Source: Clostridia bacterium | Lineage (GTDB): Bacteria; Bacillota; Clostridia; Oscillospirales; Butyricicoccaceae | DNA: 64,000 bases | Direction of reading: 5' to 3' | Assembly: GCA_044426345.1 (NCBI GenBank) | Contig: JAWXUP010000002.1 | Location: 32,017 to 96,016 of the forward strand | In this document: in pieces, positions 18,126 through 50,520 of the stretch | Layout: every line of letters starts with the position of its first letter | Position numbering within the stretch: position 1 is the first letter of the stretch | The notes under the pieces: generated by a model | Told to the model about the DNA's origin: nothing | The model's input: only the letters and a program-made list of their open reading frames with translations | Database searches by the model: none | Made by a program: the position numbers and the translations under genes

Positions 18126-18878
18126 TTATCCTCCTATGGATTTATAAAAATCGAGAGTTTTAAATTTATAGTCGGTCTGTGTTAGTACGAAATCTTCGCA
18201 CAAATTATAAAGTATATTAAAGCCACGCTCACCCAAATTAAATGAGTAAAGCTTGTCTAAATCGCAAGTTAAAATGTGATACATTGCGTGTAAAACACCT
18301 TGTGTTATAGGCATTACGTGTGGCGAATTTATGTCTATTAAGCACTCCGAACAGCAAATACAACCGTTTATTGTATCAAAATAAGGCTGGGCGAGTCCAC
18401 TTTTTTTATCGCAAATTCCACATCGGTCTATTACAGGGTGAAAACCAGAGTGAGCGATTAATCGAAGTTCTAACGCACATTTTACGAGTTTCGGAGTTTT
18501 TTTCTGTTTTGCAACAGCGTAAAGCGAGGAAATAAGCGTTCGAGTTACTTCGATATTTACGTGGTCCTCATCGCATAATTTTGAGGCTAGTTGCACAAAA
18601 TAACTGCAAATTGCAAAATGTTCGATGTCTTCGGTTATCTCGAAAAATCGTTCGATAAGCAGTACATCATTTAATATGTATCTGTTTTTATTTGTAAAAA
18701 GTTCGAACTCGGCAAAGGCAAAAAGTCGAGTTTTATTAGCCAGAGGAGCATTTTTACGTCGAACACCTCTGCAAAGTACGGAAATTTTACCGTGGTCATA
18801 GGTGAGGAGCGTTATGTACTTGTCGTGTTCTGAAAAATCAGTCTCAGAAATTATAATGCCTTTGACAGTTATGTTCAT
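18126..18878 (-). CDS. recO: DNA repair protein RecO
   Basis: OB-fold N-terminus and a Cys4 zinc motif (CGICD...CCSEC); lies in the conserved era-yqzL-recO context. Confidence 0.9.
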   Translation of the reverse strand: MNITVKGIIISETDFSEHDKYITLLTYDHGKISVLCRGVRRKNAPLANKTRLFAFAEFELFTNKNRYILNDVLLIERFFEITEDIEHFAICSYFVQLASKLCDEDHVNIEVTRTLISSLYAVAKQKKTPKLVKCALELRLIAHSGFHPVIDRCGICDKKSGLAQPYFDTINGCICCSECLIDINSPHVMPITQGVLHAMYHILTCDLDKLYSFNLGERGFNILYNLCEDFVLTQTDYKFKTLDFYKSIGG

Positions 18879-18975
18879 ATTTCACCTTGATTTTTATTTA
18901 CATTTTGTTATATATCTTGATTTTGAAACTTTTAGTTAAATTGTTTATTTTGAAATCACAATAACACAATAATAT

Positions 18976-19495
18976 GTAGGGGCGAACTGTGTTCGCCCGT
19001 CATATTGCGTGCATTGAATTTAATATTTTACGTAATTTTATTGCGTGTCACGGTACGTCGAGGACGCTGTACCATTACATTTTGCGTAAGATAAACCAAA
19101 TTTCAGCAAATAATTGTAGGGGCGAACTGTGTTCGTCCGTCAAATTGCGTGCATTGAATTTAATATTTTGCGTAATTTTATTGCGTGTCACGGTACGTCG
19201 AGGACGTCGTACCACTACATTTTGCGTAAGATAAACCAAATTTCAGCAAATAATTGTAGGGGCGAACTGTGTTCGCCCGTCATATTGCGTGCATTGAATT
19301 TATATTTTACGTAATTTTTATTGCGTGTCACGGTACGTCGAGGACGCCATACCATTACATTTTGCGTAAGATAAACCAAATTTCAGCAAATAATTGTAGG
19401 GGCGAACTGTGTTCGCCCGTCAAATTGCGTGAATTGAATTTAATATTTTACGTAATTTTATTGCGTGTCACGGACGAACACAGTTCGCCCCTACA
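18976..19495. repeat. Tandem array of four 140-bp REP/BIME-like units bounded by inverted GTAGGGGCGAAC / GTTCGCCCCTAC termini
   Basis: Unit starts at 18976, 19116, 19256 and 19396, an exact 140-bp period. Each unit is a type-1 hairpin, a linker and an inverted type-2 hairpin; the last unit closes with an inverted type-1 copy at 19471-19495. Confidence 0.9.
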
Positions 19496-19512
19496 GGTCA
19501 TAGCAAAATTTA

Positions 19513-19680
19513 TTACTGCACACCATCTGCATCTAAAAAAATTAGCTTTTCGCCTTGTTTCATATTACTGATTTGCACCATATTTTTGTTATATTCATCT
19601 ATATTTTTACTCTTTGTATAAATTAAATATGCCATTGGGTCACCAGTGGACTCAAAAACGTTCCAACAGATTTTCTCCAT
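19513..19680 (-). CDS. yqzL: YqzL-family small protein (55 aa), absent from the ORF track
   Basis: GAGGTG RBS then ATG; MEKICWNVFESTGDPMAYLIYTK... matches the W-x-V/F-x-x-TG-x-x-x-YL signature. It occupies the canonical position between era and recO. Confidence 0.75.
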   Translation of the reverse strand: MEKICWNVFESTGDPMAYLIYTKSKNIDEYNKNMVQISNMKQGEKLIFLDADGVQ

Positions 19681-19771
19681 ATATATCACCTCATACTATT
19701 ATTTTGAGTCGCACGTGGTTTTATATACGATGTAAAATTTGTATTGTTGTTTTAAATTTATTATATAATAT

Positions 19772-19943
19772 GTAGGGGCGAACTGCGTTCGTCCGTCATA
19801 TTGCGTTCGTTGAATTTATATTTTACGTAATTTTTATTGTGTGTTACGGTACGTCGAGGACGCCGTACCCTACGGTATTTGCGATGATTTTTTGCGTGGA
19901 AAAATTTTTCTGTATGGCACGGACGAACACAGTTCGCCCCTAC
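19772..19943. repeat. Single REP mosaic unit (type-1 forward, type-2 inverted, type-1 inverted)
   Basis: GTAGGGGCGAACTGCGTTCGTCCGT ... ACGGTACGTCGAGGACGCCGTACCCTAC ... ACGGACGAACACAGTTCGCCCCTAC. Confidence 0.9.
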
Positions 19944-19953
19944 AGTTTAAATC

Positions 19954-20844
19954 TTACTCATCATACCCAAAGTTTCTCATTTGGAATAAATTATTTCTCC
20001 AGCCTTCTTTAACTTTTACCCAAAGTTGAAGATTTACCTTGCCTTCGAACATTTTTTCTAGCTCAAAACGTGCTGTAGAGCCGATTTTTTTAAGAGATGC
20101 ACCTTGTTTTCCTATAACGATACCTTTATGGCTTTGTTTTTCACAGAAAATAGTCGCTTCGATATCAACAATTCCGTTAGGACGTTCGCTCATACGTTCG
20201 ATATATACAGCAACTCCGTGTGGAATTTCTTTTTCTAGAGAGTGCAACATTTTTTCACGGATAATTTCAGCTACAAGCACTTTTTCTGGTTGGTCTGACA
20301 CCATATCGTCTGGGAAAAGAGCAGGGCCTTCGAAAGCGTTTTTCTTAAATTCTTTTAGCAGTGGTTCTAAACCAATTTTATTTATAGCACAAACTGGAAC
20401 GATAGCGTTGAAATCGTGTGCTGCGCCATAAACTGCCATAACTTCTAGCAATTTTTCTGGTGCAATCGTATCCATTTTATTGATAACTAAAATAGCTGGC
20501 AACTCGAATTGTTTGATTTTGTCGATTAATTCTTGTTCTGGGTCACCGATATTAGCGATTGGTTCTACAACTAGCGCTACAGTGTCAACGTCAGAAACAG
20601 TTTCGTTTACGATTTTTACCATAAAATCACCTAAGCGACTTTTAGGGCTGTGAAGACCTGGTGTGTCCATAAAAACGTATTGCGTATCGTCTTTGTTTAA
20701 AATACCAGTAATTCTTGTACGAGTTGTTTGTGGTTTGTTTGAAACGATAGCAACTTTTGAGCCTACAAGCGCATTAGTTAAAGTAGATTTGCCAACGTTT
20801 GGACGTCCTACGATTGAGATAATCGAAGATTTTGTGATGTTCAT
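19954..20844 (-). CDS. era: GTPase Era
   Basis: G1 GRPNVGKST, G3 DTPG, G4 NKMD, and a C-terminal KH domain. Confidence 0.95.
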   Translation of the reverse strand: MNITKSSIISIVGRPNVGKSTLTNALVGSKVAIVSNKPQTTRTRITGILNKDDTQYVFMDTPGLHSPKSRLGDFMVKIVNETVSDVDTVALVVEPIANIGDPEQELIDKIKQFELPAILVINKMDTIAPEKLLEVMAVYGAAHDFNAIVPVCAINKIGLEPLLKEFKKNAFEGPALFPDDMVSDQPEKVLVAEIIREKMLHSLEKEIPHGVAVYIERMSERPNGIVDIEATIFCEKQSHKGIVIGKQGASLKKIGSTARFELEKMFEGKVNLQLWVKVKEGWRNNLFQMRNFGYDE

Positions 20845-21294
20845 TTATGTTCTCCTTTTGAAGATAAACCACAGGTTTATCAACGTTAATATTATTAAAA
20901 TTCCTATATAAATCACGGTTAAATTCGCTAAAATTATACCTATTTTCGGTGTAAAAATTACAAGTCCGATAATAACACAAGAAATAGCACAAACCAATAC
21001 GGCAGCAGCTGCAATATCTTTAGCGTTTTTTATGAAAATATTATATTCAAAGCCAGTTCGGTTGCATAGACATTCTATCGCTGTGTTTAACAGCTCAGCA
21101 GAAAGCACTTGCGCAAAACACATCATCATAATTGCAAATTCTATTGTAGAAATTTGAGCAAGATGTGAAAAAATCAGTACATACGCAATCGCAACAAGGT
21201 GTATTCGGAAATTTCGCTCGTTATTTACGCAATATTTGATACCATCAAGTGCAAAACCGAAACTTTTTCTTAGTTTTCTTATTCCTCGTTTCAT
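20845..21294 (-). CDS. dgkA: Diacylglycerol/undecaprenol kinase (DgkA family)
   Basis: N-terminus SFGFALDGIKYCVNNERNFRIH plus 3 TM segments; lies between ybeY and era. Confidence 0.85.
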   Translation of the reverse strand: MKRGIRKLRKSFGFALDGIKYCVNNERNFRIHLVAIAYVLIFSHLAQISTIEFAIMMMCFAQVLSAELLNTAIECLCNRTGFEYNIFIKNAKDIAAAAVLVCAISCVIIGLVIFTPKIGIILANLTVIYIGILIILTLINLWFIFKRRT

Positions 21295-21782
21295 CTTCCA
21301 ATACCCAAAATACCTAAAATTTCTTTTTCCTTCGAACGCATTAAATCAGCGTCAATATCATCAGCTTCGTGGTCATAACCTAGTAAATGCAGAACGCTAT
21401 GTACGGTTAAAAACGCAAACTCACGTTCATTTGAATGACCAAACTCGCGTGCTTGCTCGATGATTTTATCATACGAGATAATCATATCTCCTAAAGCTAA
21501 TTCGTTAGTATCTGGGTCGATACATAGGTCTAAATCGTCTTGCATTTCGCCGTTGTGATATTCAACCATCGGGAAAGAAAGCACATCAGTAGCGTAGTCT
21601 TTTTCACGATATTCGCGATTAAGCTGATGGATTTCTTCGTTGTCTGTAATTGTGATGTCTATGTGACAGTCTTGCTCGATTTTGTGATACTCAAGCACAG
21701 CAGTTGCACATTTTAAAATTAGGTCTGGTACGGATTGTTCGATGTCAAGTTCGGTAAAAATTTCTACATTGTGTTTTGGCAT
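21291..21782 (-). CDS. ybeY: rRNA maturation endoribonuclease YbeY
   Basis: Zinc motif HSVLHLLGYDH; 163 aa. Confidence 0.95.
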   Translation of the reverse strand: MPKHNVEIFTELDIEQSVPDLILKCATAVLEYHKIEQDCHIDITITDNEEIHQLNREYREKDYATDVLSFPMVEYHNGEMQDDLDLCIDPDTNELALGDMIISYDKIIEQAREFGHSNEREFAFLTVHSVLHLLGYDHEADDIDADLMRSKEKEILGILGIGR

Positions 21783-21790
21783 AAAATTCC

Positions 21791-22969
21791 TTATCTTTCT
21801 TTTTCTACTCCAATATTTTCTAGAGTTTCGATGTCCATTTGTATAGATATTATATTATTTTCATCATTATATATTTGTGAGTTTTTAACTATATCACCGT
21901 CGATATGCTCGTTTAAAGATTTAAGTAAATTTTGTTCAAGCATACTAAAACCGACGTCGCTATTTATATTTGCAAGCTGTGGTTCATACTCGATATACTG
22001 TTCTGTTTTTAAGTAAATCGGAATGGTGACAGATGGCGACAGCGTAATTTTTCTCACACTTATTATTTTATCATAAAAAGCATACTCATTGCTAGTACTT
22101 TTGAATAAATTTATGGCTTTTTTACCGAAAATTAACGAATAATTCTTAATTTGAGCGCCAGTGTAGTCTTTTGAATAAATTTCAGAGGGTAAAATACGTG
22201 TGATATGATACCAAATCGAGGCTTTAATGTTAGCGATTGAATGAACATAACGCTGAGTGATATCCTCAACCTGTGGATAATTTACAACTTCGCTAGAAAC
22301 TAAAATGTCGCCCTCAAGAAAAGTATGCCCAACATCAACAACTTTTTCACCAGCGAGAACTTCTATTGTGTCGATAAGCCCAGTTTTATCTGCGATTATG
22401 TCGCACGCTACGTCTTTTGAGATTATTTCAGGAGTTTCGTCACGCTCATAAACCTCGACGGTTGCCATATTTCCTTTTAAATTTATCGCCATCCATAAAA
22501 TTTCGTCATTATCTAAAATTATATTATTTCTAACCTCATTTGCATTAATTTCTGATAGTTTTGTGCCGATTTTTATGTTATTTTGCTCTAAAGCATCGTA
22601 AATCATAGCAGTTTTGTCTGTTCCGATAACTTCGATGGCGAAAAGATAGTTAGTTAGAACGAAATAAGTAGCAAAAACTGCAAAAAAACCTAAAATTAGT
22701 GCGTAACGTGTTTTTATTTTAGATAGAACATATGGTAACCCACTTTTTTTTATTACGCTAGATGAACATTTTGCATTTGAAATTATCTTTTGAAGGCGTG
22801 TGTAATCTTCGATTAAAATATTAAGGTGAACCTCGTCTAAACCGTGTTTTGAAATGTTCCAAACGCTGATATTATTTAGTGCACAAAGATTGAAAAAACG
22901 CTCTAAATAAGCACCTGTTACGGATATTTTAAGGACGCCTTTGCAGAAATTTAGCAAGTATAAAATCAT
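21791..22969 (-). CDS. yqfD: Sporulation protein YqfD
   Basis: N-terminus GVLKISVTGAYLERFFNLC, a central TM segment, 392 aa; adjacent to yqfC. Confidence 0.85.
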   Translation of the reverse strand: MILYLLNFCKGVLKISVTGAYLERFFNLCALNNISVWNISKHGLDEVHLNILIEDYTRLQKIISNAKCSSSVIKKSGLPYVLSKIKTRYALILGFFAVFATYFVLTNYLFAIEVIGTDKTAMIYDALEQNNIKIGTKLSEINANEVRNNIILDNDEILWMAINLKGNMATVEVYERDETPEIISKDVACDIIADKTGLIDTIEVLAGEKVVDVGHTFLEGDILVSSEVVNYPQVEDITQRYVHSIANIKASIWYHITRILPSEIYSKDYTGAQIKNYSLIFGKKAINLFKSTSNEYAFYDKIISVRKITLSPSVTIPIYLKTEQYIEYEPQLANINSDVGFSMLEQNLLKSLNEHIDGDIVKNSQIYNDENNIISIQMDIETLENIGVEKER

Positions 22970-22973
22970 AAAA

Positions 22974-23249
22974 TCACCTTAAAAAATCAATGTTTGTAAT
23001 ATTTCCGACTATTAAAATATCGGTTTGAGAAATAGCACCTAAAACAAGGTTAAAACCGAAGATTTTAACGATTAAATCACCACAATTTATGTGAATTTCG
23101 GTGTCATCTAGGTTTAAAATGCCTTTGTGGTTTTCGATTATTACAGTATCGTTTGAAATTACCTCGATTTTAGAAACATCGCGTATTAAATTGGTAGGAA
23201 CTTCGAGTTTTCTCGAGATATCTATCATTTTCTGCTCTATTTTATTCAT
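22974..23249 (-). CDS. yqfC: Sporulation protein YqfC (YabP/YqfC family)
   Basis: 91-aa protein with the YabP-like pattern (IENHKGILNLDDTEI...) directly upstream of yqfD. Confidence 0.8.
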   Translation of the reverse strand: MNKIEQKMIDISRKLEVPTNLIRDVSKIEVISNDTVIIENHKGILNLDDTEIHINCGDLIVKIFGFNLVLGAISQTDILIVGNITNIDFLR

Positions 23250-23290
23250 ATTTCACCTCGTTTTTTTGGGTTGATGGGTATTTTGTGCTT

Positions 23291-23393
23291 GCTCACTCCG
23301 TTAAAATAAAATTTTGCCACCTATCTCTTAGAGGGAGGATTTTTCCCTTGGCTCCCTGTCGAGGGAGCTGTCGTCGCAATGACTGAGGGAGTT
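23291..23393 (-). repeat. Decayed copy of the GGGAG/CTCCC multi-hairpin element (module C)
   Basis: Its reverse complement aligns along its length with 50280-50387 (AACTCCCTCAGTCA..GCTCCCTCG..AGGGAGCCAAGG..CCTCCCT..GGTGGCAAAAT..ACGGAG). Confidence 0.8.
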
Positions 23394-23417
23394 CACGCAC
23401 AATAAACAAACCGAATT

Positions 23418-23733
23418 TGTAGGGGCGAACTGCGTTCGTCCGTTTCATTATATAAAATACCACATAATAAAAAACATCGAATTTGTAGGGTACGGCGTCC
23501 TCGACGTACCGTTTGCCATATAATAAATTTGCACCATTTCAATTTTAATCGGACGTATTGATTTCGACGGGCGAACGCAGTTCGCCCCTACAGATAAATG
23601 GTGGTTTTGCAATTAATTTGAACAAATTTTATTATGTGCACGGGTCGTCGAGGACGCCGACCCCTACTGGTAACATTATTTTTTATATGGTTATATTTTA
23701 TTACACGGCACGGGCGAACACTGTTCGCCCCTA
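23418..23733. repeat. REP cluster of five hairpin modules in the divergent yqfC/ylbJ region
   Basis: Type-1 forward 23418-23442, type-2 forward 23484-23511, type-1 inverted 23566-23590, type-2 variant inverted 23639-23666, type-1 inverted 23709-23733. Confidence 0.9.
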
Positions 23734-23812
23734 CAGAACATCACACAATATATTTATGCAAAAATACTACTTAAATTACCGTTTTTTCATATATATTAAG
23801 CGAGGTGGTTTG

Positions 23813-24889
23813 ATGTTTAATATTTTCACGAAGTTTTTGGTGCTGATGTCTATTTTAGGTGTGGTCATCTTCCCAACTGAGGTTATCGCTACAGGTACAG
23901 AAGCTGTCGAGCTTGCTTTTTATCGTGTAATACCGTCACTTTTTACGTTTTTCGTGTTGCAATCGCTTGTGGTTTCTATGGGGATTTCGGACGTTTTATC
24001 TGATACGTTCGGTGTAATTTTCAAAAAAATATTTCGCGTTTCAGACTCTTCACCATATATTTTAGGCATAATCGGTGGCTATCCAATGGGATTTAAGAGC
24101 GTTATGGAGCTTTATGGTAATAAAAAAATCAGCAAAGATGAGGCAGAGCGAATGGTAGGTTTTTGCAACAATGCAGGGCCTGCTTTTATCATAGGTTTTG
24201 TCGGAGTATTTTTGTTTTCGAATAAAAATATCGGCTATGTTTTGCTTTTAGGACATATTCTAGCAAGTGTAGTAGTTGGTATGATATTTAGTGTAAAAAA
24301 CGAAGAAACAAGGGTATTTCGTATAAAAAAAGTATCGGAAAAACCATTTTATGAAAATTTTATCAGTGCTGTAAATGGTGGTTTTTCATCGGTTTTAATG
24401 GTTTGTGGTTATGTTATATTTTTCAGCATTTTTGCACAGATTTTAACACAGTTTAACGTTTTTAGCACGATTGCGACGATTTTTTCTCCAATTTTGAACC
24501 AAATCGGTATAAATAACGAGCAATTTACTGCAATTTTAATCGGAATGATAGAAATGACTAGTGGTATTAATTATTTGCAAGGTATTGATGCAAGTATTGT
24601 CTTGAAAATCATAATCGCAAGCTTTTTACTAGCTTTTTCAGGTGCGTCTATTCATTTTCAAACGCTTAGCTTTAACAAAGGCTTAAATTTGAGAAAATAT
24701 TACATAACCAAGCTTATTCAGAGCATTTTAGCACCGATTTTCAGCGTAATTGCATACAAAATTATATATTCGAAAGCAAAAACGGTATTTTTAGCTGGAA
24801 ATTATAGCGATTTCAGACACTGTAGCTTTAATGATATTGCAATAATCACACTTTTTTTATTAATTTTATTGAAAAAATCACGTAAATAA
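23813..24889 (+). CDS. ylbJ: Sporulation integral membrane protein YlbJ (nucleoside-recognition/Gate-domain family)
   Basis: GAGGTGG RBS then ATG 23813. The upstream 85 codons of the track ORF run through REP repeats and were discarded. Multi-TM protein with YlbJ-like segments. Confidence 0.75.
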   Translation: MFNIFTKFLVLMSILGVVIFPTEVIATGTEAVELAFYRVIPSLFTFFVLQSLVVSMGISDVLSDTFGVIFKKIFRVSDSSPYILGIIGGYPMGFKSVMELYGNKKISKDEAERMVGFCNNAGPAFIIGFVGVFLFSNKNIGYVLLLGHILASVVVGMIFSVKNEETRVFRIKKVSEKPFYENFISAVNGGFSSVLMVCGYVIFFSIFAQILTQFNVFSTIATIFSPILNQIGINNEQFTAILIGMIEMTSGINYLQGIDASIVLKIIIASFLLAFSGASIHFQTLSFNKGLNLRKYYITKLIQSILAPIFSVIAYKIIYSKAKTVFLAGNYSDFRHCSFNDIAIITLFLLILLKKSRK

Positions 24890-33974: not shown

Positions 33975-34440
33975 GGGGACGAACTGTGTTCGTCCCTTAT
34001 GTTTAAATTTGGTGGAATTTGTCACTAAATTTATTGTGCGAAAGCTCCCTGCACGCACAAAAAAACAACGCACCTTGTAGGGGCGACCTGTGGTCGCCTG
34101 TGACCACGATATAAAATATCACCATTTTGAAAAAACAACACACCGTAGGGGACGGCGTCCTCGACGTCCCGTTTGCCGTATAATAAGTTTGCAAAAATTA
34201 TCTTTAACGGACGTATTGGTATGACGGGCGAACACAGTTCGCCCCTACAAAAAAACAACGCACCCTTGTAGGGGAGACCTGTGGTCGCCTGTGACCACGA
34301 TATAAAATATCGCCATTTTGAAAAAAACAACACACCGTAGGGGACGGCGTCCTCGACGTCTCGTTTGTCGTATAATAAGTTTGCAAAAATTACGTTTAAC
34401 GGACGTATTGGTATGACGGGCGAACACAGTTCGCCCCTAC
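33975..34440. repeat. REP mosaic between infB and rbfA, including a roughly 192-bp unit duplicated in tandem
   Basis: Headless type-1 hairpin 33975-33997. Then twice: type-3 GTAGGGGCGACCTGTGGTCGCCTGTGACCAC, type-2 variant GTAGGGGACGGCGTCCTCGACGTCCCGT, linker L1, and type-1 inverted. Starts are 34077/34268, 34145/34338 and 34224/34416. Confidence 0.9.
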
Positions 34441-50165: not shown

Positions 50166-50520
50166 GTAGGCTATGTTCTTACGTGACACGAAATAAAATG
50201 TAAATGCACTTTGTAGGGTACGGCGTCCTCGACGTACCGTGGTACGCAACCTAAGTATTATCGTGCAAAAATATCGTGTAAACTCCCTCAGTCACTGCGG
50301 TGACAGCTCCCTCGGAGAGGGAGCCAAGGAAAAAAGCCTCCCTGTCGAGGGAGGTGGCAAAATCTTTGATTTTGACGGAGGGAGTTTACACGCAATAAAA
50401 TATCAATGCACTTTGTAGGGTACGGCGTCCTCGACGTACCGTGTACGCAACCTAAGTATTACCGTGCAAAAATCAAAATCAACGCACAAAATATGACGGA
50501 CGAACACAGTTCGCCCCTAC
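50166..50520. repeat. REP mosaic with a roughly 202-bp direct duplication flanking module C
   Basis: Decayed type-1 copy at 50166. Type-2 GTAGGGTACGGCGTCCTCGACGTACCGT at 50213 and 50415, each with about 45 nt of identical flank. Type-1 inverted copy ends at 50520. Confidence 0.9.
50280..50387 (+). repeat. Module C: a roughly 108-nt GGGAG/CTCCC multi-hairpin element (candidate structured RNA or MITE)
   Basis: Closing helix AAACTCCCTC/GAGGGAGTTT encloses four hairpins: GTCAC-TGCG-GTGAC, GCTCCCT-CGGAG-AGGGAGC, CCTCCCT-GTCG-AGGGAGG, CAAAATC-TTT-GATTTTG. Confidence 0.7.

Follow-up and report, generated by a model that had tools for sequence, protein, structure and literature searches.

To our knowledge, REP elements and RAYTs have been studied almost solely in Proteobacteria. 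RAYTs bind the folded strand of a REP and not its complement, use GTAG as a guide and cleave at CT, and in Escherichia coli an irregularity in the stem is required for activity (PMC8266576). Compensatory changes in the hairpins are common in REPINs (PMC3116915), and REPs lying in frame within tnpAREP genes are known from subclass 2.4, or RAYT group 4 (Quentin et al. 2018, PMC6006769). Here we describe repeats in the genome of a gut bacterium from a little-studied Clostridia lineage (2.95 Mb, 34% GC, 168 contigs), starting from a 64,000-nucleotide stretch of contig C98 that we refer to as the window. It is highly probable that these repeats form a REP/RAYT system, in which three REP families are each accompanied by one RAYT-like Y1/HUH gene and the hairpin fold is under constraint. 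The system occupies ~0.3% of the genome.

The stretch at 23419-23734 of the window consists of five small GC-rich hairpins set in AT-rich spacer. Three of them are type-1 REPs (GTAG followed by an 8-bp stem with a 3-nt loop): 23419..23443 on the forward strand, with a G.T wobble (the GTTCGTCC arm), and 23567..23591 and 23710..23734 on the reverse strand, both with perfect stems and the latter with an AGT loop. The other two are type-2 REPs, 28-nt elements in which GTAG and the first arm of a 6-bp stem precede GCGTCCTCGA, and the second arm is followed by GT. The majority sequence is GTAGG-GTACG-GCGTCCTCGA-CGTAC-CGT and the stem pattern is GGNNNG/CNNNCC. A reading made from the sequence alone, before this analysis, had given the stem as 5 bp; it is 6 bp long (GG...CC). 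The type-2 copy at 23485..23512 (+) has the majority stem variant, GTACG/CGTAC, and an ssDNA fold of -8.8 kcal/mol, while the copy at 23640..23667 (-) is the sole one in the genome with GGTCG/CGACC, which differs from GGACG/CGTCC by one A-T to T-A swap.

The window as a whole holds 10 type-2 and 18 type-1 copies, and the 10-mer core with at most one mismatch occurs 10 times in it against 0.96 expected. GTACG/CGTAC stems are also found at 19846..19873 (-), 50213..50240 (+) and 50415..50442 (+). The copy at 34145..34172 (+) has GGACG/CGTCC, a stem identical to that of the copies inside a gene on contig C104 that is described below, and the copy at 34337..34364 (+), in the second unit of a ~192-bp duplication, has GGACG/CGTCT with a G.T wobble. 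Three reverse-strand copies at 19050..19357 have decayed heads (TAATGG or TAGTGG replacing GTAGGG) and single changes in their stems (A.C and T.G); they lie in a 140-bp tandem array, alternating with type-1 copies. The coordinates given in the sequence-only reading agree with ours within a few bases at all copies named, and the type-1 variant that it placed at 33975 was located as the GGGACGAAC-TGT-GTTCGTCCC hairpin at ~33979..33999 (+). This type-1-like hairpin has no GTAG head, and the pair that forms a G.T wobble in 94 type-1 copies is here compensated, from G-C to A-T. We also observed, at 34268-34292, a type-1 copy that combines the GGGAGACC arm of one subfamily with the GGTCGCCT arm of another and so contains an A.G mismatch. 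It is comparable to the G.A hybrids seen in type 2 and represents either a hybrid or an intermediate.

As single-stranded DNA, type 2 folds as ((((((.((....)).)))))), comprising six pairs, a G.A mismatch, two further pairs (C-G and G-C) and a TCCT loop. The fold of the GTAG strand has an energy of -8.8 to -10.2 kcal/mol (z about -3.3), and the complementary strand folds more poorly. The centre of the element had been described as an invariant core, a description that needs amending: 60 of the 83 genomic type-2 copies have the exact core, part of the core is paired, and its sequence differs between genomes in a covarying manner. Below the upper stem, two purines face each other (G.A, A.G or A.A) in 37 of 46 hairpins found inside genes. 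A mini-hairpin within the core, CGTC-CTC-GACG, was rejected, because it depends on which stem is present and other genomes do not preserve it.

A loose first scan for hairpins after GTAG showed no enrichment over controls because chance hairpins of AT-rich sequence swamped the signal. With a stricter scan of GTAGG sites that required GC-rich stems, a GC-rich hairpin was found after 362 of 2558 sites (14%), compared with ~1.3% for control pentamers. All families share the frame (C)T-GTAG, a hairpin that opens with G and closes with C, and then GT. The genome contains ~253 type-1 copies (de-duplicated, since near-palindromic copies otherwise score on both strands), 83 type-2 copies (28-mer matches with up to six substitutions allowed) and 41 type-3 copies, a total of 377, and smaller hairpin families are present besides. 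They are dispersed over many contigs and, judged by crude ORF calls only, lie mostly between genes; the confirmed copies within ORFs are solely those inside the RAYT-like genes. Another element lies within 300 nt of 310 of the 377 copies, with a modal spacing of 40-50 nt and with tandem units of 69-70 and 140 bp. Flank conservation is weak, amounting to an A-run 8-20 nt upstream and a T, often CT, immediately before GTAG (CT in 35-41% of copies), and the consensus around the head reads cTGTAGGG. These repeats have the hallmarks of REPs, namely a stem-loop, GT[AG]G at its 5' foot, high copy number, regularly spaced clusters (BIME-like mosaics) and a length within 20-40 nt (25 nt for type 1, 28 nt for type 2). 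Type 1 forms ~35 inverted pairs. Type 2 occurs as a singlet or beside type-1 copies at ~40-50 nt, and forms none of the inverted doublets that characterise REPINs; the sole inverted pair of two type-2 copies, separated by 195 nt, is that inside the C104 gene.

Units of 69-70 bp and 140 bp that contain one or two REPs are arrayed head to tail at C51:10027-10191, C75:6775-7018 and C9:58752-58986 and in the window at 18976-19495, where the GTAG heads of the type-2 copies are decayed. Ends of contigs C5, C53, C75, C128 and C156 fall within REP copies, and the repeats are therefore probably a main cause of the fragmentation of the assembly. Contigs C152 and C156 may represent one locus twice.

Searching for enzymes, we obtained no match in the genome to PF01797 (Y1_Tnp) at its default threshold. 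Three ORFs emerged with PF01797 at E up to 10 and with NF047646 (REP-associated tyrosine transposase): C104:22996-23586 (-), encoding 197 aa; C82:27716-28246 (-); and C89:15525-15938 (+), a truncated gene without the catalytic Tyr region. The matches to NF047646 had E values of 1e-15 and 2e-12 (58.0 and 47.3 bits, cut-off 80) and those to PF01797 scored 18.3 and 14.9 bits against a cut-off of 23. Such matches, significant and yet below the curated cut-offs, identify the family as a divergent relative of RAYT / TnpAREP. An alignment of 23 homologues shows conservation of the motifs M-P-N-H-[IV]-H (HUH) and Y-I-x-x-N-P. A profile of the family had as its best match in the PDB 4ER8, the E. coli TnpAREP (E = 1.2e-10), with ISDra2- and IS608-type TnpA at E of 1e-3 or weaker; the profile was needed, as a single-sequence search of the PDB with the C104 protein gave no match. 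A tblastn search of the genome found no copies beyond the three ORFs. In the order, 90 genomes out of 401 sampled have a homologue of the enzyme. At C89:15525-15965, a type-1 REP abuts the 3' end of the truncated, type-3-like RAYT gene. Because that gene ends before the catalytic Tyr region, the enzyme of the 41-copy type-3 family may be dead.

In each of these three genes we found an in-frame inverted pair of one hairpin type, with the HUH codons lying between the two copies. In the C104 gene these are type-2 hairpins with the GGACG stem, which encode NVGDGVLDVP and YGTSRTPSPT; the hairpins of the C82 gene, GGGAGACC-TGT-GGTCTCCC, are related to type 1 through two compensated pairs; and those of the truncated C89 gene are a relative of type 3. 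The genes thus pair with the families as C104 with type 2, C82 with a type-1 relative and C89 with a type-3 relative. As in a REPtron, there is one REP family per RAYT gene (three genes, three hairpin types), and the flanking cognate REPs of a REPtron are missing, the C104 and C82 genes having none beyond their ORFs over a distance of 2.5 kb. We found no gene in this assembly that carries the type-1 hairpin in its exact form. Among homologues across the order, both hairpin copies are present in 35 of 45 intact genes. The forward copy is always in frame 0 (GTA GGG = Val-Gly) and the reverse copy is in one shared frame in 31 of the 35.

Genomes whose gene bears a type-2-like hairpin also have dispersed copies (85 in G298, 38 in G072, 27 in G274, 20 in G351 and 19 in G124), and two sampled genomes without a homologue had none. 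Among the copies listed, the commonest dispersed stems are the in-gene stems in G045, G072, G124, G298, G345 and G375. The sequence-only reading had suggested ssDNA acted on by a Y1 transposase as one source of the pattern, and this idea gained ground, since RAYT-like Y1/HUH genes carry the hairpins and the dispersed stems elsewhere match those in the genes. The possibility that dispersed copies carry the flanks of the in-gene copies was rejected, flank identity being no higher than in control families. A RAYT homologue at L057:3617-4088, in a Ruminococcaceae MAG, has in place of its 5' part six or more type-2 units, which recur in tandem every 36 nt and in frame, and whose translation consists of repeats of NANGTSRTPSPT.

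The single-stranded form that is recognised could be DNA or RNA, and we therefore compared the strand on which wobble pairs occur with the direction of the flanking genes. On the GTAG strand, type 1 shows 138 cases of G.T against 17 of A.C (p = 1e-24; 67 versus 15 distinct sequences), with G.T at a single pair in 94 of 253 copies. The same G.T pair recurs elsewhere, in 27 of 28 copies in G013 and in both in-gene copies of L131. In type 2 the corresponding counts are 20 and 13, which is not significant, so that the earlier claim of C-to-T changes leaving a wobble on one strand only is upheld for type 1 and not for type 2. A bias of the wobble strand relative to transcription, a check that had been named beforehand, was not seen in type 1, where 24 wobble copies are sense and 27 antisense to the flanking genes. 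It follows that the tolerated strand is set by the GTAG head and not by transcription, and wobble biased to the GTAG strand is what published RAYT work predicts (PMC8266576). The equal wobble of type 1 in both orientations leans towards ssDNA.

Orientation gives a different picture for the other two families. Type 1 as a whole shows no bias relative to flanking genes (67 versus 58). Type 2, between co-directional genes, lies on the sense strand in 45 copies against 9 (31 versus 6 independent intergenic regions), with 19846-19873 (-) and 50213-50240 (+) as examples in the window; where gene direction and GC skew are in conflict, the bias follows transcription, 9 to 0. Type 3 has a similar sense bias of 19 to 5. 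The type-2 bias is not predicted by a plain model of ssDNA at the replication fork and counts against it; an effect at the RNA level may come on top, or insertion may be linked to transcription. These figures are the main argument for an explanation in which the hairpins are selected mainly as RNA, for example as 3'-end stabilisers or as processing or protein-binding sites, with the RAYT merely their historical source; an RNA role was argued from similar patterns by Di Nocera et al. (PMC3733652). We nevertheless regard this as unlikely. The family with the strongest wobble bias is the one without orientation bias, type 2 shows no significant excess of G.T over A.C, and both orientations of one hairpin are kept inside the RAYT genes. 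Furthermore, the hairpin is not followed by a U-tract, its 3' flank being A-rich, and an Rfam scan of 18500-24500 with E up to 1 returned chance-level miRNA and IS009 matches only.

The claim that type-2 stems differ between copies in complementary fashion was confirmed among the 83 genomic copies, which include GTACG/CGTAC, GGACG/CGTCC, GTATG/CATAC and GGTCG/CGACC. The third pair (7-24) is T-A in 47 copies and G-C in 26, with five G.A hybrids and one T.C hybrid; the fourth (8-23) is A-T in 80 and T-A in one, the window copy at 23640; and the fifth (9-22) is C-G in 74, T.G in five and T-A in three, of which two may be one locus assembled twice. The covariation check that had been proposed for all genomic copies gave a divided answer. 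In the 41 distinct type-2 sequences 93.9% of cells are paired, compared with 89.0% in shuffles, a value reached in 0 of 500 shuffles. The number of pairs with both sides changed, three, is unexceptional (109 of 500 shuffles). Compensation within this genome is therefore real and rests on about three events.

Such complementarity could also be produced by mutation itself, through intrastrand template switching in quasi-palindromes or conversion between copies. Some homogenising process does seem to operate inside the enzyme genes, because in 18 of 35 genes the forward and the reverse copy have one and the same sequence, and in seven more only one or two positions distinguish them, in genes that are mutually only 35-55% identical. 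The change from T-A to G-C also requires two transversions and has no wobble intermediate. On the other hand, mismatched intermediates do exist at different loci (the six hybrids above and the 94 type-1 copies with G.T), template switching leaves unexplained why G.T is tolerated and A.C is not on the GTAG strand, and it does not account for a purine-purine mismatch that stays unrepaired in 37 of 46 in-gene hairpins. We consider a mutational origin of the pattern quite improbable.

Two large subfamilies make up 73 of the 83 type-2 copies, with a few hybrids between them, and the decisive evidence consequently comes from other genomes. Few clonal subfamilies with no intermediates had been named beforehand as the outcome that would count against the proposal; the subfamilies are indeed mostly two, whereas five G.A and one T.C hybrids link them. 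In a search of one genome per species with the pattern GTAGG-N5-GCGTCCTCGA-N5-CGT, in which the stems were unspecified, we found at least 130 copies in at least 119 loci. Nearly all of the matches listed are from gut or rumen Clostridia, including Oscillospiraceae, Acutalibacteraceae, Ruminococcus (among them R. flavefaciens ATCC 19208) and MAGs labelled 'Eubacteriales'. Among these matches, 122 of 130 copies are perfectly paired at all five free positions, compared with a mean of 15.9 and a maximum of 27 when partners were shuffled. They contain 14 distinct stems, neither GTACG nor GTATG being among them, and across genomes no fewer than 16 different stem sequences have retained pairing. Since a new, fully paired stem cannot arise without one double change or more, the result is independent of kinship between copies.

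The in-gene hairpins, found mostly via protein homology (nine loci came from the pattern search), tell the same story. With a detector that required a mostly paired stem, which nonetheless found such hairpins in 35 of 45 genes, 98.6% of cells are paired compared with 76.5% in shuffles. Both sides have changed at five of the eight pairs, including both pairs of the upper stem inside what had been called the core, where C-G alternates with A-U and U-A, and G-C likewise with A-U and U-A, in other genomes. Selection on a folded single strand, as the sequence-only reading had argued, is thus supported by at least 16 stems and by hairpins retrieved by protein homology. Accordingly, it is very improbable that the structure is unconstrained and that the variants are a few clonal subfamilies from founders paired by chance. 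The preponderance of two subfamilies here, and both-side changes that fall within the range of shuffles, would fit such an origin, but 16 distinct fully paired stems across genomes, 122 of 130 perfect pairings among the matches listed where about 16 were expected, a double change or more for each new paired stem, and an upper stem that covaries too do not. A role of the core in protein coding, as the RAYT loop peptides VGxGVLDxP and GxSRTPxPT with dispersed copies as gene debris, would suit the constant frames of the in-gene copies (forward always 0, reverse 31 of 35 in one frame) but has next to no probability, as one DNA is read in two orientations into unrelated peptides, stem changes freely alter residues (D, T or Y; V or C), some homologues lack the segments (L136, L127 and L132), and flanks of dispersed copies resemble those of gene copies no more than control flanks do.

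The distribution of the repeats is patchy. The dominant type-2 stem of this genome, GTACG, was absent from the other genomes sampled, among the matches listed. The congeners G001 and G002 have 0 and 3 copies of each family, and the bursts of repeats are species-specific. In another family of the order, G034 has 11 exact type-1 copies, and G013, of another genus, has 28 type-1 copies in the form of an ACC/GGT variant with the identical G.T wobble. This patchiness points to bursts, transfer, or both. Among matches that are otherwise clostridial, well-formed type-2 copies (L012 and L038) were found in contigs from a MAG that bears the label uncultured Bacteroides sp.; these could reflect misbinning or transfer. 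The match L033, in an actinobacterial MAG, was discarded as a chance match with unpaired arms.

Taken together, the REP copies have probably been spread by a RAYT-type (IS200-like) enzyme, and, since it is the fold that matters, changes in the stems come in matched pairs. By analogy with the TnpAREP of E. coli, Stenotrophomonas and Marinomonas, the enzyme would bind the hairpin formed by the GTAG strand when the DNA is single-stranded. It would read GTAG as a guide, together with stem shape and stem irregularities, which in type 2 may be the purine-purine mismatch below the 2-bp upper stem and the pyrimidine-rich tetraloop, and would then cleave and rejoin the DNA adjacent to the hairpin. Recognition and multiplication would be limited to copies that still fold; if only these multiplied, stems would drift only in matched pairs and G.T would be tolerated on the GTAG strand only. 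We infer binding, cleavage and mobilisation by the RAYT-like proteins from these better studied enzymes. Several observations count against the REP/RAYT explanation. The proteins score below the curated cut-offs, the exact type-1 hairpin lies in no gene of the assembly, type 2 has its sense-strand bias, and covariation in this genome amounts to about three events. In addition, the REPIN model expects inverted doublets, which type 2 lacks, and the dominant type-2 stem here, GTACG, does not match the GGACG stem within the C104 gene and was absent from the other genomes sampled, among the matches listed.

The position of the hairpins suggests a further, tentative idea, which we would rate as possible rather than likely. 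Rather than being an accidental insertion, the inverted in-frame pair that surrounds the HUH codons may be retained as a component of the system. The gene would then harbour the seed copies for its own REP family, and enzyme and substrate would coevolve as one unit. If the gene does carry these seed copies, enzyme and substrate would be inherited and transferred together, and the pair might let the enzyme act on its own gene. The in-gene pairs from the genomes that have such genes, 90 of the 401 sampled, would then constitute a natural table of cognate enzyme-hairpin pairs from which rules of RAYT recognition could be read.

Hairpins within each enzyme gene physically link protein and substrate. 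Many natural cognate pairs, in which stems, mismatch and loop vary in step, could help to settle how RAYTs read hairpins. The repeats also matter in practice, since they break assemblies and create spurious ORFs, and their translations (for example VGxGVLDxP and GRIISAPT) appear in predicted proteins. Those who annotate gut MAGs would benefit from recognising them.

Among described systems, the REPs of E. coli (y, z1 and z2) with a RAYT group 2 TnpAREP (PMC3479197, PMC8266576) share with the present repeats GTAG at the 5' foot, an imperfect palindrome with an irregularity in the stem, mosaic clusters and a Y1/HUH enzyme, that of E. coli (4ER8) being the best structural match of our family profile. 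By its internal mismatch, type 2 resembles the E. coli type (PMC8266576). Unlike E. coli REPs, it has a 6-bp stem, one purine-purine mismatch, a 2-bp helix and a tetraloop in 28 nt, the hairpins lie within the enzyme gene and do not flank it, and the host belongs to a low-GC Clostridia lineage. Type 1 matches in geometry REPSm of Stenotrophomonas maltophilia, which goes with a group 3 TnpAREP (PMC8266576), in that GTAG precedes a perfect palindrome of 8 bp with a 3-nt loop (23 nt), and a CT dinucleotide often adjoins it. It differs from REPSm in sequence and host, in the frequent G.T wobble at the third pair, and in that its exact hairpin is in no gene of this assembly.

The enzyme genes themselves may be likened, by description, to subclass 2.4 TnpAREP (PMC6006769), which also have REPs in frame in variable surface segments without breaking the reading frame and encode short proteins with a Y...NP motif and no C-terminal extension. 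In contrast to that subclass, one copy precedes and one follows the HUH codons here, inverted and in fixed frames, and the three genes have no flanking REPs of their own type. The REPINs of Pseudomonas fluorescens (Bertels and Rainey 2011, PMC3116915) likewise are RAYT-associated repeat populations within a genome that show compensatory changes; they are inverted REP doublets, whereas type 2 occurs as a singlet or ~40-50 nt from type 1. A folded strand, strand-specific recognition by a Y1/HUH enzyme and a guide tetranucleotide 5' of the hairpin, which we infer here, are shared with the subterminal hairpins of IS200/IS605 elements (IS608 and ISDra2). Unlike those elements, the present repeats have no transposase gene between two same-strand ends and are dispersed alone at high copy number. 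In-gene REPs and compensatory changes in REPs have thus both been published before. What is new is the host lineage, a fixed arrangement in which an inverted pair surrounds the HUH codons and no copies of its type flank the gene, a conserved design of mismatch plus upper stem, and the spread of type 2 as singlets or beside type 1.
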